Below are positions 1,397-57,302 of a DNA stretch of 64,000 bases, piece after piece. Below the pieces are notes generated by a model that was given only the letters and a program-made list of their open reading frames with translations, did not search any database and was not told the DNA's origin. A program made the translations under genes and the position numbers. How positions within the stretch are numbered: the stretch's first letter is position 1; each line of letters begins with the position of its first letter. Source of the DNA: Minisyncoccota bacterium (GTDB lineage: Bacteria > Patescibacteriota > Minisyncoccia > Phycocordibacterales > Phycocordibacteraceae); assembly GCA_018062445.1 (NCBI GenBank), contig JAGOSG010000002.1, positions 60,674-124,673 on the forward strand, read 5' to 3'.

Positions 1397-2776
1397 ATGC
1401 CTCGATCCAAAAAAAACTACAAACACTTCTGGAAACTCGGCCAAGAAGAGTACAATACGCAATACTTCGACATCACCCCTGATGGAGACTTGATGGTAAA
1501 GGAGGGCAACTACCAGTACAACGTTCACAACCTCATTAAGAAGTACGGCTCACCTCTTGAGATGGTGTTTCCGTTTATTCTTGAAAACCGCGTGAGAAAC
1601 CTCATCGACATTTTTGATGCGTATATCAAGCTCCACGGCTACAAAGGAAAGTTTTACTACCACTACGCAATGAAGGTGAACCAGAACAAGGAGTTCGTGC
1701 TCCCTGTTGTTTCTGAGGGTGGACACTTTGACGTCGCATCAGTAAACGAGCTCTGGATTGTAAAGCGAATGCTCGAGCAACAGCGCTTTAATCCAAAAAT
1801 CCGCGTCACCTGCAATGGCCCAAAAACAGAAGCGTACATCACTCTCATTGAACAATTAAACGCGAAAGGTCTCACTGTCATACCTATCATCGAGGACTAC
1901 AACGAGCTCGAGCGTTTGAAAAACTTTAAAGGTGAAACGGGAATCCGTTTGAATATGAGTATCCGCGTGCAGTCACACTGGGACAAACGATTTAACCGCT
2001 ACGGTTTCCGTGAAGACGAAATAGTGAAACTTGGTAAAATCCGCAACCTCAGTGTTCTTCACTACCACATCTCATCTCAGCTTGAGAAAGTAGATGGGCT
2101 TGTCGAACCTTTGAAGCGAGCGCTTGAAATCTACGAGAAGCTCCGTGTAAAAAACCCAGGACTCGACACCATCGACATGGGCGGTGGCGCAGGAGTGCCA
2201 TACGAAAAGAAAGGAAAATTTTACACAGGAAAGTCTGCAATAAATAAAATAGTCCGCACCGCAAAGAATTACTGCGACAAATCAGGTATCAAACATCCAA
2301 ACCTCATTGTTGAGTGGGGTCGTTACGTTGCTGCACCTGCACAAATTACACTCTATAAAATATTGACTGAAAAAAGCGTGAGTGAAGACGGCAAGCGCAA
2401 GTGGTACATCATTGATGGGAGCTTCATGAACGACCTCTTGGACACATGGGCTCTGAAGCAAAAGTGGCATGTTACACCAGCAAACAATATGAAGAACAGA
2501 AAGCTTCAGCGCATTTGGTTTGCAGGCTCTTCGTGTGATTCTGATGACAAATACACCGCAGGTGGTGGCAACATCTCCATGCCTCGCCTCGAAGACTTGG
2601 AGACCAACGACCACCAGTATGTTGCCTTCTACGACACAGGAGCATACCAAGACGCACTTGCCTCGCACCATTGCCTCCTCTCCTCCCCTGCAAAAATAAT
2701 CTGCCAAGACGGCGAAATTAAACTCGCACGTAGACGAGAGACCTCAGAAGACGTGGGCAAACAATTCGGTTGGTAA
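1397..2776 (+). CDS. speA: PLP-dependent Orn/DAP/Arg decarboxylase family 2, most likely biosynthetic arginine decarboxylase (short SpeA-like)
   Basis: 459 aa. HYAMKVN (PLP-lysine motif), FDVASVNEL, MGGGAGVPY (Gly-rich loop), EWGRYVAAP, AGSSCDSDD (CxSxD as in Arg decarboxylases). Sits with agmatine deiminase and N-carbamoylputrescine amidase. Confidence 0.65.
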   Translation: MPRSKKNYKHFWKLGQEEYNTQYFDITPDGDLMVKEGNYQYNVHNLIKKYGSPLEMVFPFILENRVRNLIDIFDAYIKLHGYKGKFYYHYAMKVNQNKEFVLPVVSEGGHFDVASVNELWIVKRMLEQQRFNPKIRVTCNGPKTEAYITLIEQLNAKGLTVIPIIEDYNELERLKNFKGETGIRLNMSIRVQSHWDKRFNRYGFREDEIVKLGKIRNLSVLHYHISSQLEKVDGLVEPLKRALEIYEKLRVKNPGLDTIDMGGGAGVPYEKKGKFYTGKSAINKIVRTAKNYCDKSGIKHPNLIVEWGRYVAAPAQITLYKILTEKSVSEDGKRKWYIIDGSFMNDLLDTWALKQKWHVTPANNMKNRKLQRIWFAGSSCDSDDKYTAGGGNISMPRLEDLETNDHQYVAFYDTGAYQDALASHHCLLSSPAKIICQDGEIKLARRRETSEDVGKQFGW

Positions 2777-2813
2777 GACACAGTCTTACCAGCAAAGTGC
2801 GCTCTCAGAGCTC

Positions 2814-3317
2814 ATGAAACAAATCCTTTTTCTAAATCCAGAAAATGTCTCTAAGGACGAAGCCGGAAGCTATCCTTTGCGTGAAGCGGCACGTGCAGTA
2901 GTGTCTGATGAAAATGGGATGATTGCACTTCTGCATGTTTCCAAAGAAAACTACTACAAGTTACCGGGAGGCGGACTTGAAAGCTCCGAGGATAAATTCT
3001 CAGCTCTCCAACGAGAATGCCTAGAAGAAATAGGTTGCGAAGTTGAGATAATTGCTGAAGCGGGTTCTATTTTGGAATACAGAAAAATTTTCAATATAAG
3101 GCAAATTTCATATTGCTATGTAGCAAAGACAAAAGGTGCAAAAGGAATACCTGATTTTACTCAACATGAGAAAGATAGAGGTTTTGAAATAATATGGCTG
3201 CAACCAGAAAAAGCAAAACAAGCACTTAGTGAAAGCCAAGCAACGAGCGACGAAGGTCGTTTATATATTGTGCCGCGAGATCTCGCACTGCTGGAGGCCG
3301 CTTTAATTTTAAGCTAG
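2814..3317 (+). CDS. Nudix hydrolase
   Basis: 167 aa with a Nudix box: PGGGLESSEDKFSALQRECLEEIGCEV (Gx5Ex7REUxEExGU). Confidence 0.7.
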   Translation: MKQILFLNPENVSKDEAGSYPLREAARAVVSDENGMIALLHVSKENYYKLPGGGLESSEDKFSALQRECLEEIGCEVEIIAEAGSILEYRKIFNIRQISYCYVAKTKGAKGIPDFTQHEKDRGFEIIWLQPEKAKQALSESQATSDEGRLYIVPRDLALLEAALILS

Positions 3318-4423
3318 AGATCCAAAAGGACAGCGGCGATCCAGGGGAACGCTACGGTTACATCGCTTTGAATGATGTTGTAATAGCTCGTGGTTGAAAG
3401 TTTGTCCCAGGTTATTTTCTCTTTTCCACCTGCACCCGAGTAAGAACCATACGACATTGGGGATGAACCAATTTCAACAAATCCTGCCCAGTCACGCACA
3501 CCTTTGAGCTGTAAGTCATGCTTGAGTGATGGCACAACACAAATTGGAAAGTCTGCCGCGATACCGCCACCGAGTTGCAAAAATGCTATTGGGGCATTCT
3601 TTGATTCCTTCATGTACCAGTCGTACATCAGGTGGAAGTAGTCCAAACCTGTTTTCATAACACCTGCCTCCACTTCCGTGTCTCCTTTCTTTTTGTGAGG
3701 GCCATTGTAGGTGTAGCTTGCAAAAATGTTACCCATCGTTGAATCTTCAAACCCCGGCACGACAATAGGAATGTTTTTCTCGTATGCGGCGTATGTCCAA
3801 CAATCATTGGGGTTCGCCTTTGCATCAGGTTTGATTAACTTCTCAGCGAAAAGTCTGCGGAAATATTCGTGTGGGTAGTGACTCTCACCTTTCTTTGCGG
3901 CCTCATGCCACATCTTCAAAAGGTGCGGTTCCATGATGCGAACACTCTCGTCCTCAGGAAGGAAGGTGTCGGTAATACGACGAAGTCCTGCGTCTCGAAG
4001 TTCTGCTTCTTGTGCGGGTGTGAGTTCGGTGTAGCGAGGAATGTTAGCGTAGTGTGAGTGCGCCACATAGCGGTAGTACGACTCTTCGTGGTTTGCTCCT
4101 GTTGCAGAAACCAAGTGCACTTTGTTTTGGCGAATGAGTTCCGCAAGCATGATTCCTATCTGGAATGAACTCAAGGCACCTGCCAATGTCACCACCAATT
4201 TTCCACCATTTTTCAGGTGGTCTTTGAGCCACAACGCTGCCTCCATCGTCGCTCCCCCGTTGGTGTGATTGAGTGTTCGTTCAGCGAAGCTACTGACAGG
4301 ATTCTTACTCTTTTTGATGTTTGCGGACAGAGTGCCTGAGGTGACCCGAGCATCAGGCTGAATAAACTTCTTGAGAGCTGGAGAAAGCTTATCTATCTTC
4401 TTTTTTGATGAGTTTTTTTTCAT
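3314..4423 (-). CDS. deoxyhypusine synthase-like protein (homospermidine synthase family)
   Basis: 369 aa; LVSATGANHEES and QLGGGIAADFPICVVPSLKHD resemble DHS-family NAD/spermidine-binding motifs. Diverges from the polyamine genes. Confidence 0.55.
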   Translation of the reverse strand: MKKNSSKKKIDKLSPALKKFIQPDARVTSGTLSANIKKSKNPVSSFAERTLNHTNGGATMEAALWLKDHLKNGGKLVVTLAGALSSFQIGIMLAELIRQNKVHLVSATGANHEESYYRYVAHSHYANIPRYTELTPAQEAELRDAGLRRITDTFLPEDESVRIMEPHLLKMWHEAAKKGESHYPHEYFRRLFAEKLIKPDAKANPNDCWTYAAYEKNIPIVVPGFEDSTMGNIFASYTYNGPHKKKGDTEVEAGVMKTGLDYFHLMYDWYMKESKNAPIAFLQLGGGIAADFPICVVPSLKHDLQLKGVRDWAGFVEIGSSPMSYGSYSGAGGKEKITWDKLSTTSYYNIIQSDVTVAFPWIAAVLLDL

Positions 4424-4524
4424 AGTTGAAATCGTGCTAATGGTATCTCACATGAGTGGTGTGTCAATTATGCCTTAGTGAGGCAAATCCAAAATAGTGG
4501 ACATCGGAACTCTAAAATATATAA

Positions 4525-4672
4525 TTAAAATCTAGAGTATTTTCGGAAACCCGCTTTCGAACCGAGGAGAGTGATTTTTGAAGCGAGACGCAAGCTGGAA
4601 AACGAAGAATATCAGAGATATTTTGAGTTCGAAGCGTAGTGTCGTAGCAAAAAATCACTCTTCGCAGAGCCG
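4525..4672 (+). promoter_or_regulatory. structured divergent intergenic region (long-range inverted repeat) upstream of the aguB-like gene
   Basis: cgaggagagtgattttt (about 4563-4580) pairs with aaaaatcactcttcgcag (about 4643-4660), enclosing roughly 60 nt with internal stems; lies between divergent starts at 4423(-) and 4675(+). Confidence 0.25.
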
Positions 4673-4674
4673 GA

Positions 4675-5562
4675 ATGGGGTTTCAGAAAATGCTCAAAAA
4701 AATGAAAAAAAACTCCCTCGTTACCATCGGAGCAGTGCAGAGCAAGGTCTCTGCCGATATGCACAAAAACCTTGCGCATACGCTTACGCTCGTGCGGAGT
4801 GCTGCAAAGAAAGGTGCGAAAATAATCTCTCTTCAAGAGCTCTACCGCACCGAATACTTTCCTCAATACAAGAAAAACAAATTCGACAAGTACTCAGAAA
4901 CCATTCCGGGAGAATCCACAAAGGCCTTTAGCGCACTCGCAAAAGAACTCGGCGTCGTTATCATTGTTCCCCTGTTCGAGAAAACAAAAGACGGCCACTA
5001 CTACAATTCAGCGGTTGTTATTGATCACACTGGAAAAATATTGCCGACCTACCGCAAAATCCATATCCCACAGGATGCGCTCTTTTATGAGAAGAATTAC
5101 TTCAAAGAAAGCCCCGACGGCTACAAGATATACAAAACAAAGTTTGGCACCTTTGCCGTGCTCATTTGCTACGACCAGTGGTTCCCTGAAGCTGCACGCA
5201 TGGCAACCTTGGCTGGCGCAGACATCATCTTCTACCCCACTGCTATCGGCTATGTGCAGGGCTACAAGTCGCCTGACGGTGATTGGCATGATGCGTGGGA
5301 AACAATAATGCGTGGACACGCCATCGCAAATGGTGTGCATGTCGTTGCCATCAACCGCACAGGCAAAGAAGATAAACTAAATTTCTGGGGACAATCATTT
5401 GCCTGCGACTCATTCGGCAAGATACTCAAACGCGCTAGTGCTACAAAAGAGGAGGTGCTCGTCGCAACGCTCGACCTTTCACATAACAAACGCATTCGTG
5501 AAGGATGGGGATTTTTCAGGAATCGTCGCCCTGACACCTATCAGTTCAATCCTGCCAAATAA
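4675..5562 (+). CDS. aguB: N-carbamoylputrescine amidase (carbon-nitrogen hydrolase / nitrilase superfamily)
   Basis: 295 aa; CN-hydrolase pattern ...AKIISLQELYRTEYFP... (catalytic Glu region), ...FAVLICYDQWFPE (catalytic Cys). Immediately upstream of agmatine deiminase. Start may instead be the internal Met near 4690-4700. Confidence 0.7.
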   Translation: MGFQKMLKKMKKNSLVTIGAVQSKVSADMHKNLAHTLTLVRSAAKKGAKIISLQELYRTEYFPQYKKNKFDKYSETIPGESTKAFSALAKELGVVIIVPLFEKTKDGHYYNSAVVIDHTGKILPTYRKIHIPQDALFYEKNYFKESPDGYKIYKTKFGTFAVLICYDQWFPEAARMATLAGADIIFYPTAIGYVQGYKSPDGDWHDAWETIMRGHAIANGVHVVAINRTGKEDKLNFWGQSFACDSFGKILKRASATKEEVLVATLDLSHNKRIREGWGFFRNRRPDTYQFNPAK

Positions 5563-6606
5563 ATGGATACTTCAAAAAAGCCAAGCGACTTGGGTTTCTC
5601 TATGCCCGCAGAGTGGGAAAAGCACTCCGCTGTGTGGCTCTCATGGCCCCACGACACCACTTCATTCCCCCACCTCAATGAAGCAGAAGAATCTTTTGCT
5701 GAATTCATAAAGGAAATTTCTACTTCAGAGAAAGTTGAACTGCAGGTTTTGAATGAGGTGATGCTTGATCATGTAACTGAAGCTTTGGAAGAAAAAGGTG
5801 TAGATATGGAAAGAGTCACCTTCCATCCCGCTAACTATGCTGACATTTGGTTCCGAGACTACGGCCCAATCTTTGTAACAAACAAAGAAACTAAAGAGCT
5901 CGCCATGGCGAAGTGGACTTTTAATGCGTGGGGTAACAAATACAAAATCCTTCTGAAGGACAACGAGGTTCCTTACGCTATGAACGCAGAAATGAAACTG
6001 CCTATGTTTGAACCAGGCATTGTTATGGAGGGAGGTTCCATCGAAGTGAACGGAAAAGGAACCCTAATGACCACCGAGCAATGCTTACTCAATAAAAATC
6101 GCAACCCAAACTTGAGTCGTGAACAAATTGAGAAATACCTAAGCGACTACCTTGGTATCCGCCATTTCATTTGGCTTAAAGAAGGGATTGAAGGCGATGA
6201 CACTGACGGACACATTGACGACATCGCGCGCTTTGTAAACCCCACAACGGTGCTGTGTGCATACGAAGAAGATGAATCGCACCCTGATCACGCAATCTTG
6301 AAAGAGAATTTTGAAATACTGCAACACTCTACTGACCAGGATGGTAATCCCCTCTCTGTTATCAAGCTCCCTACTCCAGGAAAAATATCGGCCCACGTTG
6401 AGCCTCTGCCTGCGAGCTATGCAAATTTTTATATTGGAAACACAAAAGTCTTAGTTCCTACCTTTGGTACTGCAAACGACCAGAAAGCCTTAGACATCAT
6501 TCAATCAGTTTTCCCTGACAGGAAAGTTATAGGAATTGATGCAACCTATCTCGTGTATGGACTCGGCACCTTCCATTGCATGAGCCAGCAACAACCTGAG
6601 ATATAA
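5563..6606 (+). CDS. aguA: agmatine deiminase
   Basis: 347 aa; [57 protein letters not shown]-terminal [11 protein letters not shown] (catalytic Cys). Confidence 0.85.
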
Positions 6607-7181: not shown

Positions 7182-7257
7182 TGGTGCGCGCTCTAGGATT
7201 CGAACCTAGGACCCTCCGAGTATCAGTCGAATGCTCTACCAACTGAGCTAAGCGCGC
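7182..7257 (-). tRNA. tRNA-Ile (anticodon GAU) with encoded CCA
   Basis: Reverse complement (76 nt): GCGCGCT-TA-GCTC-AGTTGGTA-GAGC-A-TTCGA-CTGATAC-TCGGA-GGGTC-CTAGG-TTCGAAT-CCTAG-AGCGCGC-A-CCA. Cloverleaf complete. Confidence 0.85.
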
Positions 7258-7717
7258 AAATGCCTACCGTGCGTACCCTTGAGCTAACTGCTCGCGAGTA
7301 TCGGAAATACTAGCAAAAATAAGGCTCTCTAACAACGCTATCAAGCCCCTTGCTCGCGCTCAAGGTGTCCTACAAATCGCCTATCTGAAGGACGCCCTTC
7401 AGATGCGGCATGTACCGCTGCACGAAGAGCTCGACCATCATCACCTTTGCGTTTTGGTTTGAATCTGTCTAAATTTTCTTTCGCCATAAACCGCATACTA
7501 TGACTTCCCCTCACTCATGTCAAAAAGCCACCCTGTTAGGGTAGCTTTTTAAAAACCAAAGCAGTCAATCAAGTTCCTCTCTTTCTTCTGTTCCGCATAT
7601 CCCCGTTTCGACAATCGGGGTGCCGGATACCATTTAGAGTTGTGTATCAATACTCTGTACCTGACAATCGACCGGATTAATTTTGAACAGAATAAATTCT
7701 GAGCAAAACATTTTCCG

Positions 7718-9175
7718 CATGGAATTGTTCCACGACCAGCTTCCGCTAGCCGTGCCTTGTTACAACTTACTCCCTGTTACCGAGCTTACCGTAGACCGTG
7801 ATAAACACGGGCGTCGGGTCCTCCCGGCTCCCTTGAGTTGATGGGCGGTGAGTACAAAATTCGAGAACGTATTCACCGTAGTATAGCTGACCTACGATTA
7901 CTAGCGATTCCAGCTTCAAGAGGTCGAGTTGCAGACCTCTATCCGTACTGAGGAGGCGTTTTGGGATTTGCTCCACCTTACGGTATTGCTTCCTTTTGTC
8001 GCCCCCATTGTATCACGTGTGCAGCCCAGGGCATCAGAGGGACATGCTGATCTGGCGTCATCCCCTCCTTCCTCTCCCGTGAGGGAGCAGTCTCGTCTGA
8101 CATATAAAACAGACAACGGGGGTTGCGTTCGTTTCCCCACTTAAGGGAACAGCTCAAGCCACGAACTGACGACGACCATGCATCACCTGCCATACACCCT
8201 CGAAGGCTCCCAATGTTTCTACTGGGATGCAGTATGGTTTCAAGCCCTGGTAAGGTTCTTCGTTTACCGACGAATTAAGCCACATGATCCACCGCTTGTG
8301 CGAATTCCCGTCTATTCCTTTGAGTTTTAGTCTTGCGACCGTACTACCCAGGCGGTTCCCTTAACGCGTTAGCTACGCCACGAAGAGGGTCGATACTCCT
8401 CATAGCTAGGGAACATGGTTTAGGGCGTGGACTACAAGGGTATCTAATCCTTTTCGCTACCCACGCTTTCGTGCCTCAGTGTCAGGAATGTCCTAGTATG
8501 CTGCCTTCGCATTCGGTGTTCCCCATGATATCAACGGATTTCACCCCTACACCATGAGTTCCACATACCTCTTACATCCTCTAGTTTTACCGTTTCCCCC
8601 CGAGCCTCGGAGTTGAGCTCCGAGAATTTAAAGGAGGACTAATAAAACCACCTACGCACCCTTTACGCCCAGTAATTCCGGATAATGCTTGGGGCCTCTG
8701 TATTACCGCTCCTGCTGGCACAGAGTTAGGAGCCCCTTATTCATGAGGTACTGTCAAAACTTCATCCCTCATAAAAGGTGTTTACGTCCCGAAGGACTTC
8801 ATCCACCACGCGGCGTCGCTCCGTCAGACTTTCGTCCATTGCGGAAGATTCTCGACTGCGGCCTCCCGTAGGAGTAAGGACCGTATCTCAGTTCCATCGG
8901 TGGGGGTCAGCCTCTCAGCTCCCCTAAACGTCATAGCCTTGGTGAGCCATTACCTCACCAACTAGCTGATATTACGCAGGCTCCTCCTAGAGCGAATTGC
9001 TCCTTTACACCTTAGTGACTATCGAGAATTGCGCCATCTTTCGATGGAATATGCTCGACTCTAGGGTAGATTCCTACGTGTTACTACCTCGTCTGCCGTG
9101 GGTCTAAACCCACTCGACTTGCATGCCTTATCCACGCCGCCAGCATTCATCCTGAGCTAGGATCAAACTCTAATT
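7718..9175 (-). rRNA. rrs: 16S rRNA (about 1.46 kb)
   Basis: 5' end AGAGTTTGATCCTAGCTCAG (revcomp of 9151-9172). 530-loop region GTGCCAGCAGGAGCGGTAATAC (revcomp of about 8700-8722). 3' end ...GTAACAAGGCACGGCTAGCGGAAGCTGGTCGTGGAACAATTCC (helix 45 with GGAA loop conserved). ORF-track ORFs 7767-8871 are spurious. Confidence 0.85.
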
Positions 9176-9607
9176 TAAGATCTCATGCCTCCAATTGAAG
9201 GGCACGAAATCAATACACGGAACAGAAGAAAAAGAAGAAAATCTTTTATCTTCGGATCTTTTGATTTCTTGGCTCTTGATTACTACTTACTTTTTTGTGT
9301 TTTACGATTGGCTCCTATGCTAGTCGTAAAACTTACTGGTCTTCGTACTTTTACGTACGTATTCAATTTTCAAAGATCTCTGTGGTATTCGGGCTTACGC
9401 CCTCACACGACTGCACTCGCTCGGAAATGAAAAATAAATTTTCCTTCCCCTCACTCGCTTGTCGATAAAAAAAGCCGAAGCTTTTTCTTTACTCCGGCAT
9501 ACGGGTGAATCGTCTTTCGTTGAATCAGTTTGTTCCCATATGACAAATATAACCGCATGCCACAGCAAGCGTTTGTCTATACTACTCCCCCGCCCCAAAG
9601 CAGTCAA

Positions 9608-9722
9608 GCTGGGCTTTTGAAGCCAGCTTTCAGGTTTCAGGTGCCAGGTTTTAGCTTTAAATTAAAGCCTAGAATCTTAAATAAAAGCTGGAAGCTGAAA
9701 GCCGACAGCTGGAAGCTTTTAG
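9608..9722 (+). repeat. intergenic repeat family A, full-length copy (CCAGCTTTCAGGTTTCAGGTGCCAGG...GCTGAAAGCCGACAGCTGGAAGCT)
   Basis: Near-identical to the minus-strand copy at 26866-26946; shorter relatives at 39006-39043, 39661-39693, 24665-24701. Confidence 0.8.
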
Positions 9723-9741
9723 GGTATAGTGGAGAAAAACA

Positions 9742-10465
9742 TATGCAAAAAAACACGAAAAAAACAGTTAAGACTCCTAAGCAAAGCAATATAACGGTCA
9801 TTTCCCTCGGTGGCTCAATGGTGGTGCCAGACCTTCCAGACCCAGCCTTCGTAAAGGCGTTTGTAAAAATGATTGCAGAGAGGACTAAAAAAGGTCGCCG
9901 ATTCATCATCGTTGTAGGAGGAGGAAAAACCTGTCGTAACTACCAAAATGCCCTTGCCGAGGTGCGTCCTGTTTCTGACAATGAAAATGACTGGATGGGT
10001 ATCTACACCACACACTTCAACGCTGAGTTCATGCGCCTCGCTTTTGCTAAGCTCGCACACAAAGAAGTTGTTACAAAGTATGGAAAAAAGATTACATTCA
10101 AGACACCCGTCTTAATTGGCGCAGGAGAGTTGCCGGGTCACTCAACCGACTTTGATGCAGTACTTCTCGCAAAAATGTTTGGTGCAAAAAATGTGGTCAA
10201 CATCTCGAACATCGATTTTGTGTACACATCAGATCCTCGAAAGAATCCTGACGCTCGGCCACTGCCAAAACTTTCATGGAATGAATACTTGGCACTTCTT
10301 CCTAAAAAATGGACACCGGGCTTCTCTTCCCCGTTCGACGTCAAAGCATCAGCAATCGCTAAGAAATCAAAATTGACTGTGTCTATTGTGAACGGAAATT
10401 CACTGACCGAAATTGCAAAAGCCCTCGATGGAAAAAACTTCCGAGGAAGCACTATTTCCACATAG
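9742..10465 (+). CDS. pyrH: uridylate (UMP) kinase, archaeal-type
   Basis: From the internal Met at 9742: ...NITVISLGGSMVVPDLPDPAFVK..., IIVVGGGKTCRNY, GHSTDFDAVLLAKMFGAKNVVNISNIDFVYTSDPRKNPDA, ...GSTIST. Matches archaeal PyrH block for block. The upstream part of the ORF-track ORF (9530-9741) lies in a repeat element and is unlikely to be coding. Confidence 0.8.
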
Positions 10466-12082: not shown

Positions 12083-13456
12083 CTATTTTCCTAAGCCATT
12101 ACCGAATAAGAAATGTGCTGCCTTTGAGGTAGACTTGCCAAATCCAAGGGCAAGCAACAATGTTCTCGTTACCGTAACAGCAGTAAACATTGAAACGAGG
12201 ACACCAATGATGAACACGAGCGCGAAACCTTTAATCACCGCAGTGCCACCAAGCCAGAACAAAATAACGCCAGTGATGATTGATGAGAGGTTTGAATCGC
12301 TGATCGATGACCACGCACGCCTGAATCCTTCCCGTATTGCTTCACCGAGAACCTTCCCACTCTTCAGCTCTTCTTTCATTCTTTCAAAAATAAGAATATT
12401 GGCATCAACTGCCATACCAATAGAGAGAATGAATGCAGCGAGGCCTGCGGTTGTAAGTGTTACTGGAATGAGCTTAAAGATAGCGAGGTTCAAGGCAACA
12501 TAGAGTGACAGTGCAACGACTGCAATAACCCCAGGAAGTCGGTACCAAAGAATGAGGAAAAGCGCGACGAGCCCAAAGCCCCAGAGGCCTGCATCCACAC
12601 TTTGCGTTAGCGCCTTCTCACCGAGCGATGCGCCAATAGTCTGAGAAGACACGAGCTCAATTGGCACTGGCAGGGCTCCGAAGTTTAGATTGCGGACCAA
12701 TTCACGAGCCTCATCTGGAGTAAAGGTACCTGTAATATTTGCCTCTCCGTTTGGAATAGCTTCTTGAATGACTGGCGCTGAAATAATTACATCGTCGAGA
12801 AATATGGCGAGTACCTTACCAACATTTTCTGATGTAATGTCCTTGAAACGCTTAGCCCCTTCAGGATTGAAGGTTAATACAATAATTGGCTGATTGGAGA
12901 GTGTGCCTTCGCGACCTGACGAAAAATCAAGCGTTGCGTGATCAAGATACTGACCCGTAAGTCCCATATCTTCATAAATTTGAGCGCCTGCTTCATCGGT
13001 CTTCTGGAGGCGAAAATCGAGCGTTGGAGTTTGACCTATTGCTTTCACTGCCTCCGATAAATCAGTGACGCCCGGAAGTTCAACAATCAATCTATTGTCT
13101 CCACCACCGACAACACCCCCACGCTCTACCTGCACTAATGGTTCCGACACTCCAAAAATATTCACTCGCTTCTCAACAACATCACGCAAACTCTGCATTG
13201 CAGAATTTACATCACCAGAAACAACTTTTGATGTGTCGGCCCTATATAAAAGATGTGATCCGCCAGCCAAATCAAGACCGTAGCGAAATGGGAATTTTTG
13301 ACCCGCCTGCTCCGAGCTAACTACAAACCAACCAATACCCGCACCAATCAAAAGGAGGACAACTGCGACAATTCGTACTTTCCACATAATGCTCAGAGTA
13401 TGCCACGAGTAGCGTTTAGGGGCTAGGGGTGAGCGTTTAGAGAGGAAAACAGGCAA
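12083..13456 (-). CDS. secD: protein-export membrane protein SecD (true start probably the MWKVRIVAV Met near 13387)
   Basis: LDLAGGSHLLY signature and a periplasmic domain followed by 6 TM helices. Confidence 0.85.
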   Translation of the reverse strand: MPVFLSKRSPLAPKRYSWHTLSIMWKVRIVAVVLLLIGAGIGWFVVSSEQAGQKFPFRYGLDLAGGSHLLYRADTSKVVSGDVNSAMQSLRDVVEKRVNIFGVSEPLVQVERGGVVGGGDNRLIVELPGVTDLSEAVKAIGQTPTLDFRLQKTDEAGAQIYEDMGLTGQYLDHATLDFSSGREGTLSNQPIIVLTFNPEGAKRFKDITSENVGKVLAIFLDDVIISAPVIQEAIPNGEANITGTFTPDEARELVRNLNFGALPVPIELVSSQTIGASLGEKALTQSVDAGLWGFGLVALFLILWYRLPGVIAVVALSLYVALNLAIFKLIPVTLTTAGLAAFILSIGMAVDANILIFERMKEELKSGKVLGEAIREGFRRAWSSISDSNLSSIITGVILFWLGGTAVIKGFALVFIIGVLVSMFTAVTVTRTLLLALGFGKSTSKAAHFLFGNGLGK

Positions 13457-20310: not shown

Positions 20311-20423
20311 TGTTCTGGCGATTAGCTACTCTCCCCTTTCGAGTACCATCGCTACAACCATGCTTAACTGCCGAGTTCGGAATGGGATCGGGTGTGACCA
20401 CGGCGTCAAATCACCAGAACACA
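20311..20423 (-). rRNA. rrf: 5S rRNA
   Basis: Revcomp: TGTGTTCTGGTGATTTGACGCCGTGGTCACACCCGATCCCATTCCGAACTCGGCAGTTAAGC...GATGGTACTCGAAAGGGGAGAGTAGCTAATCGCCAGAACA. Matches the 5S helix I / loop C consensus. ORF 20051-20401 is spurious. Confidence 0.75.
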
Positions 20424-20437
20424 AGATTCGATACACT

Positions 20438-20469
20438 TCACTCATCACAAAGAAAACACCGAGCACAAT
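20438..20469 (-). promoter_or_regulatory. 3' half of the 23S processing stem (pairs with 23975-24006)
   Basis: Minus-strand attgtgctcggtgttttctttgtgatgagtg downstream of 23S is the reverse complement of the sequence 60 nt upstream of the 23S 5' end (attatgctcggtgttctctttgtgatgagttg on plus at 23975-24006). Classic RNase III stem flanking 23S. Confidence 0.5.
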
Positions 20470-20489
20470 ATTTCGTTAATAGATTTTCA

Positions 20490-23920
<3,431 letters not shown>

Positions 23921-23974
23921 GAGGAAGCTTGAAAACCACATAACGATTCTGTTCAATTACGAACAGTGATTTTT

Positions 23975-24235: not shown

Positions 24236-24386
24236 TACAGGAGAGCCTCTTTGAGTTGATTACCCTATCCACAGGATTTCCACTCCTAATTAGGTGCTAG
24301 GTTTTAGGGACTAGGTTCTAGCTTTGGGACAAAAATACCCTAAGGTTTCACCTTAGGGTATAGATATAAGTTATCGCTACAAAAAT

Positions 24387-24633: not shown

Positions 24634-24665
24634 AAAAAACACCCGCTCTTTCGAGCGGGTGTTTT
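24634..24665 (-). terminator. intrinsic terminator of the 24716-25423 gene
   Basis: Minus strand reads aaaACACCCGCTCgaaaGAGCGGGTGTttttttt immediately after the stop. Confidence 0.6.
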
Positions 24666-24715
24666 AAGCTGAAAGCTAGAAGCTGTAAGCTAACAGCTTT
24701 CGCACTTTGTGCGAA

Positions 24716-25423
24716 CTAGTTCTTGTGTCCAACTTCTGAGCGAATTTTTTCGATGTAGCGAGCTGCTGCATCTTGACCACCGAGACCAAACGCAAGTCCG
24801 ACTGCGAGTGATACTGCAATCACAATTCCTGTGAAGAGTGTTTGCACAAAAGGAGTTGCAACTTGAAGTTGCGAGAGAACAGCGAGGATTGTGAAAACCC
24901 AAATTGCCCACTTCGCAACATGTCCTGCAAGACTAGCTGAGCGAACGCCCGCTGCCTTTGCTGAACCAGTAACAATGTCTTTCGCAAACTGTGCGAGCAT
25001 TGCACCAACAAGTACCATGAGTGCCGCAACAATTACTTGTGGCAAGTATGCAAGAACTACTGTCTGCAAGAAGACACTCACTTGTGTAAGTCCGAGAACT
25101 TCAAGTGCTGCCATCAAGAAGACGATAACGAAAAACCACTTCACTAAAGCACCGAGGAATGCTCCGGTGTTCAATGTAAAACCAGCGCGCTCGACGAGAT
25201 CGTTCAAGCCAGTCTTTTTAAGTGCTCCGTCAATTTTGAGCGTACCCAAAACTTGTGAAATGACGCTACCGAGTGCTGCGCCCACAACCCATCCAAAAGC
25301 GAGAATAATAATCGCAACGAGTACATTTGGAACGAAGCTAACGAGCGTAAGCCAGAGATTCTGGAACGAGTGCGTTAATACTTCTGCCCATGTTTGAATA
25401 ATCATAGAGGAAACGTTATACAA
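24716..25423 (-). CDS. membrane protein built of conserved TM-helix repeats (MscS-channel N-terminal-domain-like)
   Basis: 235 aa, about 6 TM helices. Repeated LG..V..LAQFAKDIVTG / LGTLKIDGALKKTG-type amphipathic linkers typical of Pfam TM_helix repeat proteins. Confidence 0.5.
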   Translation of the reverse strand: MYNVSSMIIQTWAEVLTHSFQNLWLTLVSFVPNVLVAIIILAFGWVVGAALGSVISQVLGTLKIDGALKKTGLNDLVERAGFTLNTGAFLGALVKWFFVIVFLMAALEVLGLTQVSVFLQTVVLAYLPQVIVAALMVLVGAMLAQFAKDIVTGSAKAAGVRSASLAGHVAKWAIWVFTILAVLSQLQVATPFVQTLFTGIVIAVSLAVGLAFGLGGQDAAARYIEKIRSEVGHKN

Positions 25424-25600
25424 TAAATAAAATTAATAATGAAGGACTTTATGTCCCTCCTACCGCTCGCTTCACCTTCGGTTCAGCATTAGCGGTTTCC
25501 GCTTTGCGGAACCGGAAGAAACATGAAGCAGTTCATGTTTCTTCCTACTTAAAATGGTAGCACATTGTAGAGGTGCTGGAGGGTGGATGTGGATAGCAGA

Positions 25601-25675
25601 ATAGCCACTAGCCAATAGGGGTTAAGCCACTAGGGAACATCTGAAACTCCCTAAACCCTAGTGGCTAAACCCTCG
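25601..25675. repeat. palindromic element GCCACTAGGG...CCCTAGTGGC (family D) just downstream of a gene stop
   Basis: agccactagccaataggggttaaGCCACTAGGGaacatctgaaactccctaaaCCCTAGTGGCtaaaccctcg; second copy at 33171-33246. Confidence 0.7.
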
Positions 25676-25676
25676 T

Positions 25677-26279
25677 TCAACGGCGGCCAATGATGGTACG
25701 GTGTTTGAATTCCAAGACATCGCGAAGCATTCGGTCGCGCGCTTCAAGACGCTCAGCGTATTCCCCTCTCTCTAGTACAGCATAGCGAAGCGGTAGTGCA
25801 GACATGCGCTCAACCGCACGCACCGATGTAGCGATTCGTGGATCGTTTGGTTTTTTAGTCACAATCAAAATATCAATAAGTCCTCTCTCTTCCCCAGCAA
25901 GTATGCCTGCAACAACAAGAAGCGTAATACCAGAGACACCCCTAAATGCTGATGCAATAGAAGAATCATCAGGAAGTGTTACTGACTCAAGAAATGCACG
26001 GAAAGGAGCGGTGAGCGGATGAGACGTGTTTAAACTCCAGAGCATATTTTTGCCCTGTGTCCGTGAAGTGAGGATGCCATAATTTTTAAGCGCCCGAAGT
26101 TCATGCACCGTAATAGCTTTAGGAATGCCAGTAGTGTTTGAGGCAACGAGAGTGGATATACGGACATCTGGTTGAAATAAGAAAAACTTCAAAAGCTTCA
26201 GACGCGGAATCGAGGAACAGAGTTGAATGATATCTTTGAACATGCAGAGTATTGTACCTGCACCTTTCTGAAAAACCAA
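25677..26279 (-). CDS. hypothetical protein: N-terminal winged-helix HTH plus C-terminal possible minimal nucleotidyltransferase-like domain
   Basis: LKLLKFFLFQPDVRISTLVASNTTGIPKAITVHELRALKNYGIL (wHTH-like); C-terminal ...GITLLVVAGILAGEERGLIDILIV... (degenerate NTase G-S...D.D pattern). Confidence 0.4.
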   Translation of the reverse strand: MVFQKGAGTILCMFKDIIQLCSSIPRLKLLKFFLFQPDVRISTLVASNTTGIPKAITVHELRALKNYGILTSRTQGKNMLWSLNTSHPLTAPFRAFLESVTLPDDSSIASAFRGVSGITLLVVAGILAGEERGLIDILIVTKKPNDPRIATSVRAVERMSALPLRYAVLERGEYAERLEARDRMLRDVLEFKHRTIIGRR

Positions 26280-26488: not shown

Positions 26489-26851
26489 TTATGCGAGCTC
26501 AACCTTTCCGCCTGCTTCCTCAATTTTCTTCTTGAGAGCTTCAGCGTCTTCTTTCTTGACCCCTTCCTTCAATACTGAAGGAGCGGCATCAATAAGATCT
26601 TTTGCTTCTTTAAGTCCGAGAGCAAGAGCTTCTTTAACTACTTTGATGACGGCAATCTTAGTTGCGCCTGCATCAGTAAGTTTAATGGTGAACATTGATT
26701 TTTCTTCTGCGGCTTCACCTGCTACTGCAGGACCTGCCGATGCAACTGCGGTTGCAGAAACACCCCACTTCTCTTCTATTGCCTTGACGAGTGTATTCAA
26801 TTCAAGGACTGTCATCTTCTCTACTGCTTCAATAACTTGTTCTTGTGTCAT
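26489..26851 (-). CDS. rplL: 50S ribosomal protein L7/L12
   Basis: 120 aa; N-terminal dimerisation helix, Ala/Glu-rich hinge, C-terminal ...[23 protein letters not shown]...EAGGKVEL. Confidence 0.9.
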
Positions 26852-26865: not shown

Positions 26866-26946
26866 GGTTTCAGCTGCCAGCTGTCGGCTTTCAGCTTGAG
26901 CTTCTGAATTAAAAGCTAAAAGCTGGCACCTGAAAGCTGGAAGCTT
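26866..26946 (-). repeat. intergenic repeat family A copy filling the rplJ-rplL spacer
   Basis: Minus strand: aagcttCCAGCTTTCAGGTGCCAGCTTTTAGCTTTTAATT...GCTGAAAGCCGACAGCTGGCAGCTgaaacc. Confidence 0.8.
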
Positions 26947-26948
26947 TA

Positions 26949-27479
26949 CTAGACTTTGGTTTTCCCTACCTCAGCAAGTGCTATCGCAAAACGCTGAATA
27001 GGAGAATTAATAACATTGACGAACATTCCGCGAAGTACTGCAACTGGAGGAATGGTAGCCACAGCAACAATTTCTGTTCCTGAGAGATACTTCCCTTCTA
27101 GTGCACCCCCCAGGAATACAAGCTTGCCCTTCAATTTCTTGACGAACGCTTGCAAACTTCTCGCTGGCGCTGTGATGTCGGATTCCACACCCTCTACTTC
27201 AGAGAGATAGGCAAAGGCGACTTCACCAGTTAATTCTGGCATCTCACCAGAAAAACCTTTCGCATCGAGTGCCTTCTTCAAGAGCGTCTTCTTAACGACG
27301 GTGTACTTCACACCCTCGCTTTTGAGTGCATCTCGAAGTTCGTTTACTTCATGAACTGTCACTCCTCTAAAAGAAACAAAGACAATAGACACTGCTTTCA
27401 GAAGTGCATCAGTTGTTCCCTTTAAGAGTGACTCTTTTTTTGCTCGAGTAATGGCCACGTTAGTTTTTGTTACGAACAA
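26949..27479 (-). CDS. rplJ: 50S ribosomal protein L10
   Basis: 176 aa; ...VSFRGVTVHEVNELRDALKSEGVKYTVVKKTLLKKAL... L10 family; directly upstream of rplL. Confidence 0.9.
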   Translation of the reverse strand: MFVTKTNVAITRAKKESLLKGTTDALLKAVSIVFVSFRGVTVHEVNELRDALKSEGVKYTVVKKTLLKKALDAKGFSGEMPELTGEVAFAYLSEVEGVESDITAPARSLQAFVKKLKGKLVFLGGALEGKYLSGTEIVAVATIPPVAVLRGMFVNVINSPIQRFAIALAEVGKTKV

Positions 27480-32372: not shown

Positions 32373-33257
32373 AGATACAATAATAATTTTCTAATTTTTG
32401 ACGCCACACTCATTCACGCTTGAATTAAATAAAACGCGAGAATCAGTGGTGCGGGTGCGTGGACGCAAATCATTCGTTCGACCGAATAACTCACGACCCG
32501 CCGCATACCTGTTAATAAGTACGACTAAGAGTCGTCCTTTCTACCGTCGCTCGTTCGGAAGAGAAATAAAATTTCTCTTCCCTCACTCGCTAGGTAGTAA
32601 GCATAACGAGATGTCACACTCTCTGTCATTTCTTGTTCGGGAAAGAAATAGAATTTCTTTCTACTCACTTGAATGACAGCAAAGAACAACTAATTTTCTG
32701 TCTTCCGTAATTGAATCTAGAAAAATTTTCTAAACTTTTTTCAGAAGACAGCACAACTAAATTCCATCAACCCGTTCGCATTATTTCTAATGTAAACGGG
32801 ACCAATGGTAAGAAGAAAAAATGGTCATGCAGGATATAGCCGTGGTGGGATAGTGCTTCCTTACAGTGATGTACGCATGCTTCATTTATTACAACGAAAC
32901 CAAGGCGCACGCTTGAGATGTATTCCGGATATGAAAGATGTCAAAGTTCTGTTCGACCGGAAGCGCGCCACAACAACGCGCAACCGAACACCCAGTACGG
33001 GAGTTCACTTATTATACGTGCCCGCCCCGCTCTACATATTAGAACAGAGGGTTTGTATATGTGGACAACATAGACAACAAAAAGCCCGTTTCCGGGTTTG
33101 TTGCTGTCTATAGGATCATGCCATCCACAAATGAAATACTATCTGAAATAAGGCTCAAAAGCAAGAGAGCAGGGGTTAGCCAATAGCCACTAGGGTGTAG
33201 GGTATAGGGAGCTCCCCTAATGACTAAACCCTAGTGGCTATACCCTTACAGAAAAGC
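32373..33257. other. 885-bp noncoding region with repeated hairpin modules; candidate ncRNA(s) and promoter of the surface-protein gene
   Basis: No credible ORF (32398-32676 and 32805-33113 have non-protein-like composition). Contains GGAAGAGAAATAAAATTTCTCTTCCCTCACTCGCT (about 32548-32590) and its variant GGGAAAGAAATAGAATTTCTTTCTACTCAC (about 32640-32670), both similar to 9419-9465 upstream of the 16S; plus GCCACTAGGG...CCCTAGTGGC palindrome at 33171-33246. Confidence 0.3.
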
Positions 33258-33274
33258 TTACGCTTTTCTGTAAG
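33245..33274 (-). terminator. hairpin overlapping the stop codon of the 33258-34139 gene
   Basis: CTTACAGAAAAGcttacgCTTTTCTGTAAG (12-bp stem). Confidence 0.45.
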
Positions 33275-34139
33275 TACTCCATCTGCGCTCCCCTTCCTTT
33301 ATAAGGGTGCCTGACTGAACAAGAGACAGAAGCTCCCGCTGCACTGTCTTTTCGCTACAACCAACGACTGATGCGGTGATGTCCTTTATAGAAAGTTTTT
33401 CTTTATTTTTGAAAACAGCGAGCACTAAATCCCTTCTATCGGACTGTCTTTTTTGAGGGGCGATTCTCAAAGTATTGTTTTTTATTCTGAGAGAATCTAA
33501 AGGACTTTTTGTAACATGTCCTATAGAAAAACTATTCGGAGCCTCTAGGTCAGAGAGGGCTTCCTCTATACGACCAACATGTTCAGAAATCTTCTCTTGA
33601 TTGTCTCGGACAAAAGAAGCGAGTGAGGCATATTCATCTCCTATAAGTTTTGCGTTCATTGCCGATATCAACCCGCCCGCTTTTGCGGTCTCAAGTATTG
33701 CACCTATCTCCATACAACGAGCGCCAAAAGACTCTATGCTAGCGCCGTGAAGTTTTGCCTGATCTGTCGATCGATTAAGAAGGTCAAGCGCACACGAACG
33801 GAGACGCCCTCGTGCAGGTTCATCGGGAGACAAGAAGCCAGTAATTACATATAGGGCGGAGGCCAGTCTCTCAGACTTTTTAACAACAAAAGCATGATGT
33901 CCATTAGACAAAAGGTGTCCCAAATGGAAAGAAGCGCTTACACTGAGCGTTTTCTTATTTGTCTGATTACCTTGATTGTCTTTTATACTATCGGACATGT
34001 ATGAAACGCTATCGGTCTTTAATTTCAAGGTCATTTTACCTCTAAGACCTTGTCCTTTGCAACCTCCGAGGTAAAAAACAAGAAACAAATTCCAAGTACC
34101 AAAAAGAAAGAGACTTGCGGGCAAGGCACCCAGACTCAA
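33258..34139 (-). CDS. hypothetical protein with C-terminal helix-turn-helix (winged-helix) domain; N-terminal extent uncertain
   Basis: C-terminus ...LSIKDITASVVGCSEKTVQRELLSLVQSGTLIKEGERRWSTYRK is HTH-like; first about 30 codons (MSLGALPASLFLF...) may be upstream of the real start. Confidence 0.4.
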   Translation of the reverse strand: MSLGALPASLFLFGTWNLFLVFYLGGCKGQGLRGKMTLKLKTDSVSYMSDSIKDNQGNQTNKKTLSVSASFHLGHLLSNGHHAFVVKKSERLASALYVITGFLSPDEPARGRLRSCALDLLNRSTDQAKLHGASIESFGARCMEIGAILETAKAGGLISAMNAKLIGDEYASLASFVRDNQEKISEHVGRIEEALSDLEAPNSFSIGHVTKSPLDSLRIKNNTLRIAPQKRQSDRRDLVLAVFKNKEKLSIKDITASVVGCSEKTVQRELLSLVQSGTLIKEGERRWSTYRKA

Positions 34140-38969: not shown

Positions 38970-39081
38970 TGTTAGACGCTTCGGCGCCTTTATTAATACT
39001 TATTGAGAAGCTTTCAGGTTTCAGCTGTCAGGTGCCAGCTTCGGAGTTTGAAACAAACTTAAACGCTATAATTTAACCCTC

Positions 39082-39657
39082 ATGTCTGTACTTTCATACA
39101 ACGAAATCATTCCTAAGAAAATAATTGTCCACGAAGGACAGCCTTTTGAAGTACTTTCTTCGCACGTATTTCGCAAACAACAACGAAAGCCTGTAAATCA
39201 AACAAAACTCAGAAACTTGAAAACTGGGAAAGTGCTTGAAATATCATTTCACCAAGCGGAAACCGTACTGGAAGCAGACATGGAAAAGCGCTCAGCAAAA
39301 TTCATATACAAAAATCGTGGTGAAGCGTGGTTTACCGATCCAGAAAATCCAAAAGATCGTTTTGTGGTAACCGAGGGGATTCTTGGAGAAAACGGGCAGT
39401 ATCTGAAGCCTGATTTGCTCGTGGAGCTATTGGTATGGAATGAAGAAATCATTGGCGCGAGGTTACCAATAAAAATGGAATTCAAAGTGGTTGAGGCTCC
39501 CCCATCAGTCAAAGGCAATACTGCGCAAGGTGGTACAAAACTAGTAACACTCGAAGGTGGAGCAACGGTAAATGTTCCGATGTTCATCAACGAAGGTGAT
39601 ATTGTGCGCATCAATACCGAGACTGGAGAATACAATGAAAGAGTTGAGAAAGCATAA
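39082..39657 (+). CDS. efp: elongation factor P
   Basis: 191 aa; KOW-like N-domain; C-terminal ...GGTKLVTLEGGATVNVPMFINEGDIVRINTETGEY; tip-loop region reads FRKQQRKPVNQTKLRNL. Confidence 0.85.
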   Translation: MSVLSYNEIIPKKIIVHEGQPFEVLSSHVFRKQQRKPVNQTKLRNLKTGKVLEISFHQAETVLEADMEKRSAKFIYKNRGEAWFTDPENPKDRFVVTEGILGENGQYLKPDLLVELLVWNEEIIGARLPIKMEFKVVEAPPSVKGNTAQGGTKLVTLEGGATVNVPMFINEGDIVRINTETGEYNERVEKA

Positions 39658-57296: not shown

Positions 57297-57302
57297 TTTT
57301 CC

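Follow-up and report, generated by a model that had tools for sequence, protein, structure and literature searches.

A 64,000-nucleotide (nt) stretch of contig JAGOSG010000002.1 from a Minisyncoccota bacterium (hereafter, the window) carries a family of short intergenic repeats, designated family A, which a sequence-only reading had placed at 5 gene boundaries. All 5 sites are present in the window sequence: upstream of pyrH (9608–9722, plus strand), in the rplJ–rplL spacer (26866–26946, minus strand), on both sides of efp (39006–39043 and 39661–39693), and downstream of a transmembrane (TM)-helix gene (24665–24701). The gene identities guessed in that reading match the results of open reading frame (ORF) and Pfam domain checks, which gave the following neighbors:

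9743–10465, plus strand: pyrH (AA_kinase)
26489–26851, minus strand: rplL
26949–27479, minus strand: rplJ
39082–39657, plus strand: efp
24716–25423, minus strand: gene of a mechanosensitive-channel TM-helix protein

Our analysis revealed that family A is a subfamily of short tandem heptanucleotide arrays, which comprise ~5 units (~35 nt) and are located in intergenic spacers, and that the 80–115-bp long copies are 2 heptamer arrays arranged head to head.

Unit, period, and length of the arrays

Every family A copy is a tandem array with a strict 7-nt period (Tandem Repeats Finder, TRF), an organizing principle that was overlooked in the earlier description of the element as AGCT, CAGCTG, and TTTCAGG words. 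The recurrence of the words themselves was confirmed: AGCTGNAAGCTG, with at most 1 mismatch, occurs 16 times compared with 1.6 expected, and 0 of 100 shuffles reached 16. The family A unit reads CAGSTKY on one strand and AASCTGR on the other. The further unit flavors in the window (TAGGTTC, TAGCGTT/TAGCGTA, and TAGGGTR/TAGCCAC) all collapse to the same YAGSKKY consensus, and a typical array of the class can be written as (Y-A-G-S-K-K-Y)5, or as (R-M-M-S-C-T-R)5 when the opposite strand is read. Across 124 units taken from the window and 2 relatives, the consensus positions are occupied at 88% (Y1), 96% (A2), 98% (G3), 92% (S4), 95% (K5), 93% (K6), and 84% (Y7). Relatives located via RplL are Paceibacteria/Parcubacteria metagenome-assembled genomes (MAGs) of the Patescibacteria. 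We refer to an array as an AG arm or a CT arm according to the dinucleotide that its units carry on the strand under discussion.

A self-match lag scan detected 14 arrays at lag 7 and 12 at the double lag of 14, compared with 0–3 at the other lags from 4 to 15. The commonest in-phase dinucleotide at 7-nt spacing is AG/CT. Runs of at least 4 AG at this spacing, counted on either strand, number 24 in the window versus 1.8 expected (maximum of 6 in 100 simulations), and runs of at least 5 number 19 versus 0.2 expected; spacings of 5, 6, 8, 9, and 10 yield 0–6 runs each. Twenty of the 24 runs are intergenic, and intergenic sequence (neither gene nor RNA) constitutes 11.4% of the window. The run length has its mode at 5 units in all 3 samples: the window has 5 runs of 4 units, 17 of 5 units, and 2 of 7 units; the relatives L001 and L005 together have 5 runs of 4 units, 13 of 5 units, and 2 of 6 units; and 0.95 Mb of other Paceibacteria has 27 runs of 5 units versus 3 of 6 units. 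When aligned, the family A arms have exactly 5 CT cores each, with the consensus AAAGCTG AAAGCTG GCACCTG AAAGCTG AAAGCTA. Where it decays, the palindromic AGCT core turns into AGGT if the arm is of the AG type and into ACCT if it is of the CT type; thus, the constraint is the AG on one strand and not the palindrome.

The 5 family A sites contain the following arrays:

9621–9658, plus strand: AG arm, left half of the pyrH long copy (CAGCTTT CAGGTTT CAGGTGC CAGGTTT TAGCTTT)
9681–9719, plus strand: CT arm, right half of the pyrH long copy (AAGCTGG AAGCTGA AAGCCGA CAGCTGG AAGCT)
26910–26948, minus strand: AG arm on the rplJ–rplL sense strand, beginning directly after the rplJ stop codon
26861–26900, minus strand: CT arm on the rplJ–rplL sense strand, ending ~20 nt before the rplL start codon
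39006–39043, plus strand: single array in the spacer that separates efp from the divergent sigma-factor gene, relative to which it is a CT arm
39661–39699, plus strand: single AG arm that begins 3 nt past the efp stop codon, with the intrinsic terminator AAAAATCCCTCTGACGAGGGATTTTTT downstream
24663–24701, minus strand: single sense-strand AG arm located 3′ of the TM-helix gene, with the terminator at 24665–24636 after it

Bases 9608–9620 form a separate small hairpin outside the array upstream of pyrH. Read on the minus strand, the 9621–9658 array is a CT arm upstream of a 16S promoter-like site, and the 9681–9719 arm overlaps the −35-like CCGACA of the pyrH promoter-like site at 9702–9730 (both sites are described below). 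The 2 long copies are less alike than the term "near-identical" had implied, with a column identity of 79% and two 12-nt gaps; the left arm alone reaches ~90%. Their halves are indeed imperfect reverse complements of each other (71–87%) and pair in several registers 7 nt apart, as expected from 2 heptamer arrays in opposite orientation.

In the public MAG annotation, pyrH encodes 302 residues (L216, 5617–6525) and its ORF runs through the heptamer array, compared with 240 residues here. Because the Pfam AA_kinase match begins at residue 16 of the 240-residue version, the longer start (window 9530–9742) is probably an annotation artifact caused by the array. Gene callers thus extend ORFs through arrays (302 versus ~240 residues for pyrH).

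Orientation of the arrays relative to genes

Every spacer was read by hand, and array orientation was then tallied automatically. Directly past stop codons, the sense strand carries AG; ahead of start codons or promoters, it carries CT. The first AG is located 2–5 nt past the stop codons of rplJ, efp, the RecO gene, rplK, the SIMPL-family gene, and the gene at 25677, and CT arms are found on the sense strand ahead of rplL, pyrH, thyA, rpsF, secD, the gene of a 617-residue protein, and both rRNA genes. In the window genus, 13 CT versus 4 AG arrays precede starts and 6 AG versus 1 CT arrays follow stops; before the starts of other Paceibacteria, the tally is 13 CT versus 3 AG. These counts are in line with the reading of the spacers by hand.

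Three AG arms are located between a stop codon and an intrinsic terminator (TM-helix gene, efp, and SIMPL gene). The terminator at 24665–24636 is listed by the terminator scan; those after efp and the SIMPL gene were identified by direct inspection of the sequence, and the scan did not list the hairpin and T tract downstream of efp (~39704–39728). The arrays themselves were called by the scan in no case and have no U tract, which rejects them as intrinsic terminators. The earlier statement that they are not classic terminators therefore holds, and true intrinsic terminators adjoin the arrays (24636–24665 and ~39704–39728).

Of 30 clear inverted pairs, 28 begin with the AG arm. Of 77 inverted pairs from all loci, 59 have an excess of in-phase AG over CT in the 5′ arm, 10 have a deficit, and 8 are tied; G exceeds C in the 5′ arm in 59 versus 18 pairs, and T versus A is unbiased. 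These data span the window genus, other Paceibacteria, and IMG/VR contigs of 27–71% GC (retrieved with (AGSTNNN)5). It follows from the fixed polarity relative to genes that inverted pairs read 5′-AG arm…CT arm-3′ on both strands, in any gene arrangement.

Two other sources of the polarity were considered and rejected. Primase initiation templates are CTG/CTA; array orientation, however, tracks genes on both strands in one GC-skew domain and not the direction of replication, and the arrays are not primase initiation sites. Stop codons in all 3 frames are found in 54% of the arrays on the AG strand and in 41% on the CT strand (8% and 2% of composition-matched shuffles, respectively), because the period is 7 and the units carry TAG, or TGA/TAA on the other strand. 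This enrichment is present on both strands, which rules it out as the cause of the polarity.

Other arrays and features of the window

Apart from the 5 family A sites, the window contains the following arrays:

41063–41103, minus strand: mixed-family array (plus strand CAGCTTC TAGGTTC AAGGTTC TAGGTGC TAGCTAG), which on the sense strand is a CT arm immediately ahead of rpsF
24291–24325, plus strand: TAGGTKY array upstream of the 23S rRNA gene, which is on the minus strand
47664–47832, minus strand: inverted pair of the TAGCGTT type, filling the spacer between the RecO gene and the 617-residue protein gene
57297–57338, plus strand: CTAAACG/CTATACG CT arm (5 units), filling the 42-nt tmk–thyA spacer and ending 4–7 nt before the thyA ATG
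60668–60709, minus strand: AG arm of the TAGCGTT type, beginning 5 nt past the stop codon of rplK
62535–62583, minus strand: TAGGTTC AG arm (5 units), beginning 4 nt past the SIMPL-family stop codon, with a terminator downstream
33164–33250, no strand assigned: inverted pair TAGCCAC/TAGGGTR, 3′ of the gene of a 246-residue helix-turn-helix (HTH) protein (33258–33998, minus strand), with a hairpin z of −3.9
25600–25676, minus strand: inverted pair TAGCCAC/TAGGGTT, starting 3 nt after the stop codon of gene 25677–26279
13406–13440, minus strand: TAGCGTT/TAGGGGY array, a CT arm on the sense strand upstream of secD
20871–20940, minus strand: AG-then-CT heptamer pair in an insertion of the 23S rRNA gene

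The 23S rRNA gene (20496–23921, minus strand) has a 375-nt insertion at 20779–21154, which corresponds to position ~2620 of the Rfam large-subunit (LSU) model and is located in a hairpin loop just before the sarcin–ricin region. No ORF or intron family was detected in this insertion. As a part of the 23S rRNA gene, the 20871–20940 pair must be transcribed, and transcription is thus certain for at least this array pair. The 16S (7718–9178) and the 23S plus 5S (20313–23921) rRNA genes are not linked but lie ~11 kb apart. The genes of tRNA-Ile(GAT) and tRNA-Leu(CAG) accompany 16S (7182–9178), and secDF, folD, cell-envelope genes, and pyrH separate 16S from 23S–5S.

The 246-residue protein has no Pfam match and contains a C-terminal winged-helix-like sequence. 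Array pairs flank its gene on both sides, and the upstream pair, which is built from another unit family (CAAGAAA/TTTCTTG), still obeys the AG-arm-first rule. On the other side of the 33164–33250 pair is a plus-strand ORF (32805–33113) that lies within conserved noncoding DNA and may not be a real gene. Approximately 700 nt of this noncoding DNA (32373–33100) is ~95% conserved in L001 and contains hairpins with AT loops, such as GGAAGAGAAATAAAATTTCTCTTCC followed by CTCACTCGCT; a similar AT-loop hairpin module is present in the 16S upstream region (9400–9460). The module at 32373–33100 may be a further repeat family or a noncoding RNA. A 10-mer of the AT-loop hairpin module alone is not significantly enriched (11 versus 6.1 expected).

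Small GC-rich hairpins with TTCG/UUCG-type loops (e.g., GACGCTTCGGCGCC and GATCCCTTCGGATC) recur between array arms and beside gene starts (window 38975–38990 and 47735–47790; L005, 5480–5500). The first ~9.5 kb of the window, which comprises a polyamine-related cluster and the adjacent tRNA/16S region, contains no heptamer arrays. The cluster (1397–6606) encodes proteins of the Orn/Arg/DAP decarboxylase, NUDIX, CN hydrolase, and agmatine deiminase (PAD_porph) types, and also holds the gene of a deoxyhypusine synthase-like protein (3314–4423, minus strand).

Folding and independence of the arms

RNA folding of the copies gave a mixed result. The rplJ–rplL copy forms a long imperfect hairpin (−34.6 kcal/mol, z = −4.5), and the pairs at 33160–33260 and 25590–25680 form hairpins with z of −3.9 and −3.1, respectively, whereas the pyrH copy folds weakly (z of only −2.0 and −1.8) and single arms have z near 0. 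The complementarity of partner arms is 0.78, compared with 0.77 for non-partner arms. The pyrH left arm matches CT arms elsewhere at 89–91% and its own partner at only 74%, and approximately half of the arrays are single, with no partner arm. Since partner arms are not better matched, the arms are independent modules and the hairpin is not the conserved feature; the hairpin was rejected as the selected feature for lack of co-adaptation between partner arms.

Turnover among relatives and wider distribution

Comparison with relatives whose flanking DNA, both coding and noncoding, is 95–100% identical revealed that arrays are swapped, gained, or lost as entire cassettes. The site 3′ of efp carries family A in the window and TAGGTKC in L001 and L005; the spacer between the 617-residue protein gene and the RecO gene is occupied in the window by a pair of the TAGCGTT type and in L001 by one of family A; the SSB–S6 spacer measures 47 nt in the window, and L001 and L005 have a 105-nt pair there; and the S18–SSB spacer is 15 nt in the window and L001 and has a clean 44-nt family A insertion in L005, with flanks 100% identical. 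Around this last insertion, a doubtful, imperfect ATTATT/ATTAAT duplication is found in AT-rich DNA. The order of the family A units (AGCTGAA-AGCTGGC-ACCTGAA-ASCTGAA-AGCT) is fixed at non-orthologous sites in the window genome, in relatives, and in metagenome contigs. A 25-nt family A signature matched 6 metagenome loci, which include 2 copies on one 206-kb contig, orthologous copies upstream of a dnaG-like gene in 2 relatives, and the 10-unit array of the 59% GC contig described below.

Among other Paceibacteria species, approximately one-third have heptamer arrays with unit sequences of their own and approximately two-thirds have none in the loci examined. The rplJ–rplL spacers of 80 species are mostly short, plain, and AT-rich, and a few lineages have unrelated heptamer arrays; several other Paceibacteria independently carry CT-type arrays right before rplL. 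Look-ups of pyrH, rplL, and secF among relatives returned the same species only.

Contig Ga0326727_10036726 (L211, 59% GC) carries a 10-unit family-A-like array (CAGCTCT/CAGCTTT…CAGGTGC) and further heptamer arrays (GGACCGT with 11 units, and CAGGGGT) at 722–1215 and 5738–5877; thus, elements of this style are also present in a genome quite unlike that of the window. The IMG/VR contig L180 (3883–10520) has 9 AGCTNTT/AGCTAAN arrays in 11.5 kb, in AG-then-CT pairs that are often flanked by GGCGCGCC. Many other IMG/VR contigs (27–71% GC) contain similar degenerate arrays or perfect heptamer microsatellites.

Promoter and translation context

The 3′ tail of the 16S rRNA (window 7700–7760) ends in …GGAACAAUUCC, without the CCUCC anti-Shine–Dalgarno (SD) sequence, and an SD-like motif is found in only 6 of 64 window genes. 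Hexamers of the −10-like TANNWT type peak at start position −12 relative to the ATG (13 of 43 genes), an indication that leaderless mRNAs are widespread. Across all 60-odd Paceibacteria loci examined, SD-like motifs occur at ~9%, both with and without arrays (Spearman rho −0.01), and a tie between the arrays and SD loss within Paceibacteria was rejected on this basis. Two divergent promoter-like sites border the pyrH copy: a 16S promoter-like site, TTGACT-17-TAGTAT, from 9607 to 9579 on the minus strand, and a pyrH promoter-like site, CCGACA-17-TATAGT, from 9702 to 9730.

Possible function of the arrays

We propose that the arrays are strand-specific gene-boundary elements that are read in single-stranded form, one AG per 7 nt. 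This proposal draws on sequence patterns and on analogy with known binding proteins, and we assign it a probability of roughly 45%. Each arm would act as an independent, strand-specific element, and would be read most plausibly in nascent or 3′-untranslated RNA by a multi-site binder that touches an AG dinucleotide every 7 nt with a footprint of ~5 units. Where transcription units end, this would modulate termination, read-through, and the fate of the mRNA, and the hairpins of paired arms would be a by-product, or an auxiliary feature at most. We favor a single-strand multi-site binder because the signal is tied to the direction of transcription, to one dinucleotide per 7 nt, and to a fixed number of units. 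The earlier suggestion of a shared regulatory or protein-binding site is thereby retained as possible and indeed favored, but the common feature is a gene-oriented AG every 7 nt and not the AGCT/CAGCTG words. In a more specific form of the proposal, which we consider unlikely, the arrays would be quantized (NAG-N4)5 landing pads for a putative oligomeric single-stranded RNA (ssRNA)-binding protein, that is to say, a HutP/TRAP-like global gene-boundary reader that would control termination, read-through, and the fate of mRNAs in Patescibacteria that lack SD sequences and are largely leaderless.

Several observations weigh against reading by a single-strand binder. The placement of AG after stop codons is weak outside the window genus (9 versus 9 in other Paceibacteria). 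Pfam and PDB sequence searches found no HutP-, TRAP-, or Csp-like protein among the proteins of the 64-kb window. An orthologous array in L210 and L214 exhibits no extra conservation, with 2 changes in 35 nt compared with an overall identity of 92%. The turnover of cassettes, together with the possible target duplication, fits a selfish element equally well. The 9608–9722 copy, which is located between 2 divergent promoter-like sites, may not be transcribed at all; and if most genes are leaderless, the CT arms adjacent to starts lie in promoter DNA, where they may serve, or simply be tolerated, as sequence upstream of the promoter, which favors a DNA-level role for that half of the arrays.

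The main rival, which we regard as somewhat unlikely, is a selfish or neutral repeat, that is, miniature mobile or slippage-prone DNA without host function that is copied into AT-rich spacers, the polarity being due to purifying selection against the more harmful orientation. Such a repeat accounts for the gain, loss, and replacement of cassettes between flanks of 95–100% identity, for the fixed unit order at unrelated sites and in other genomes, and for the imperfect ATTATT/ATTAAT duplication around one insertion; the ordinary conservation of the L210/L214 array and the absence of arrays from approximately two-thirds of the related species in the loci examined point the same way. Heptamers are, moreover, the commonest class of prokaryotic long simple-sequence repeats and have been ascribed to slippage (Mrazek 2007, as cited in PMC4679880). 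The selfish or neutral reading explains turnover but not the AG phase, the 5-unit mode, or the polarity: slippage should yield arbitrary units and copy numbers that are broadly or geometrically distributed, whereas the observed mode at 5 is sharp, and the AG is invariant in phase across unrelated unit families and lineages. The polarity relative to genes is strong, no transposase was found among the proteins of the 64-kb window (Pfam), and the arrays persist in a streamlined genome, in which 89% of the window is gene or RNA.

A role at the DNA level, in which the arrays are promoter-upstream elements serving as double-stranded sites for a transcription factor, a nucleoid protein, or RNA polymerase (UP-element-like) and would shape promoters that abut start codons in a leaderless-type genome, is quite unlikely in our estimate. 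The 9608–9722 copy exactly fills the gap between the 16S and pyrH promoter-like sites, the −10-like peak at −12 places the CT arms, 4–25 nt upstream of starts, over promoter DNA, and CTATACG-type units supply TATAC(G/C) at the −10 of thyA and of the 617-residue protein gene. The AG arms, however, lie 2–5 nt past stop codons and before terminators, some of them where a minus-strand gene ends against noncoding DNA or the 3′ DNA of another gene and no promoter is expected. The 7-bp period is not in step with the DNA helix, the polarity is specific to one strand although many cores (AGCT and CTAG) are palindromic in duplex DNA, one array pair is inside the 23S rRNA gene, and the promoter matches are weak (9 of 12 positions). 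A hairpin element of the repetitive extragenic palindromic/bacterial interspersed mosaic element (REP/BIME) type or of the short tandemly repeated repetitive (STRR) type, in which a stem-loop of 2 inverted arrays is selected as RNA or DNA and serves as an mRNA stabilizer, RNase III site, U-tract-less terminator, or translational coupler, is highly improbable. The folding of the rplJ–rplL copy (z = −4.5) and of 2 further pairs (z = −3.9 and −3.1) is in its favor, as are the frequency of inverted pairs in many lineages and the same role proposed for the STRR hairpins of cyanobacteria (PMC2670836). The equal complementarity of partner and non-partner arms (0.78 versus 0.77), the weak folding of the pyrH copy, the z near 0 of single arms, and the single state of approximately half of the arrays argue against it; in addition, the rplL start codon lies 20 nt past the end of the stem and takes no part in the pairing, and a hairpin alone leaves unexplained why the AG arm is always on the 5′ side.

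Comparison with known systems

REP sequences are imperfect palindromes of 20–40 nt preceded by GT[A/G]G. The arrays resemble REP/BIME, REPIN, and miniature inverted-repeat transposable elements (MITEs; ERIC, Correia, BOX, and RPE) in being short, dispersed intergenic repeats with hairpin potential that occur both 5′ and 3′ of genes and are polymorphic for presence or absence between strains. However, the basic unit here is a non-palindromic tandem heptamer array without the GTAG-plus-palindrome structure, and the arms are not co-adapted. Single arms are direct heptamer arrays with z near 0 and have no REP palindrome, and a Pfam scan found no REP-associated tyrosine transposase (RAYT) or other transposase gene among the proteins of the 64-kb window. 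Of the features of MITEs, inverted arms are present in the long copies; single arms insert alone, and one insertion has a doubtful ATTATT/ATTAAT flank in AT-rich DNA. The earlier description of a REP/MITE-like dispersed element stands as regards a dispersed repeat family at gene boundaries, but the arrays are not REP elements in the defined sense and probably not MITEs either.

Three further identities were tried and rejected. The sigma-54 promoter is GG-N10-GC (TGGCAC-N5-TTGC); family A contains TGGCAC, but its spacing is GG-N9-GC and not N10. A TIGR/CRISPR-like array, with TIGR arrays defined as alternating 8–12-nt repeats and 9-nt spacers in ~36-nt units beside a Nop-domain Tas gene, is excluded by the period of 7, the 4–7 units, and the dispersed location of the arrays, and no Nop-domain/Tas protein was found among the window proteins. 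Known RNA families were rejected after a search of Rfam at permissive thresholds returned only sub-threshold matches to eukaryotic microRNA hairpins.

The TAACTGA repeats occur in marine Beggiatoaceae and in some Cyanobacteria and Bacteroidetes, where 147 of 170 sets point toward start codons and the sets with 2–6 copies number 68, 40, 19, 2, and 1, respectively; binding of S1, Csp, or CsrA has been proposed (MacGregor 2015, PMC4679880). Like the arrays described here, they are nearly all intergenic direct heptamer repeats directed toward starts, and the CAG core of their complement matches the polarity of the CT arms. The orientation toward start codons is likewise found here (13 versus 4 in the window genus and 13 versus 3 in other Paceibacteria), and the likeness extends in part to the units, as AACCTGA and AAGCTGA, both of them family A units, agree with ACTGATA in 5 of 7 positions when optimally rotated; the exact TAACTGA unit, however, is absent. 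The TAACTGA repeats have a single exact unit with a copy number that declines from 2, whereas the mode here is at 5, and one inverted repeat and no post-stop class have been reported for them, whereas a post-stop class is present here.

The classical STRR units are CCCCAGT, TTGGTCA, and CAACAGT. Cyanobacterial STRRs are 7-bp repeats that form intergenic hairpins, for example between hupS and hupL, and a role in mRNA stability or translational coupling has been proposed (PMC2670836); they are also reported inside the RNase P RNA gene (Vioque 1997). The arrays share with them the 7-bp tandem units, the short dispersed intergenic location, inverted pairs capable of forming intercistronic hairpins, and the occurrence within a structural RNA gene. 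By contrast, the arrays are found in Patescibacteria, in a very small genome, and their units are degenerate around an invariant AG instead of being near-exact repeats; the unit is YAGSKKY and not one of the canonical STRR units, and the host is a Paceibacteria MAG and not a heterocystous cyanobacterium. The 5-unit length, the gene-relative polarity, and the AG-arm-first rule are documented here. A trial of the same analysis on classical STRRs in one 50-kb Nostoc plasmid segment gave 5 arrays, too few for statistics.

TRAP reads (G/U)AG triplets, and cold-shock proteins (Csp) cover ~7 nt each. HutP recognizes XAG once every 7 nt, through specific contacts with the A and the G (PMC2425495). The arrays resemble the sites of HutP and TRAP in that NAG plus 4 nt gives a period of 7, the A and G are specific and the first base is free, and the sites lie immediately 5′ of a terminator hairpin or flank it (PMC2425495). 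At least 3 NAG at 7-nt spacing with invariant A and G, the pattern of a HutP-type site, are present in the arrays. HutP has 3 + 3 sites in one operon leader (that of Bacillus hut), whereas here ~5 sites are found at dozens of gene boundaries. The resemblance is one of analogy in mechanism and not of membership.

Heptanucleotide intergenic repeats (STRR, TAACTGA, and heptamer long simple-sequence repeats) have been catalogued for decades and their function is unexplained. If the landing-pad mechanism is true, it may also underlie the cyanobacterial STRRs and the TAACTGA repeats of Beggiatoaceae, since the AG-first rule also holds in IMG/VR contigs of 27–71% GC. The in-phase AG, the 5-unit length, and the polarity in a minimal genome turn a vague repeat into a concrete, testable binding-site model, and the changes of cassettes between close strains make the arrays useful as strain markers. 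A full-text literature search found no paper that describes such heptamer arrays in Patescibacteria. From the STRR and TAACTGA repeats, the arrays differ in their host, in units that are degenerate around an invariant AG, in the 5-unit mode, in the post-stop class, and in the AG-first order of their inverted pairs.

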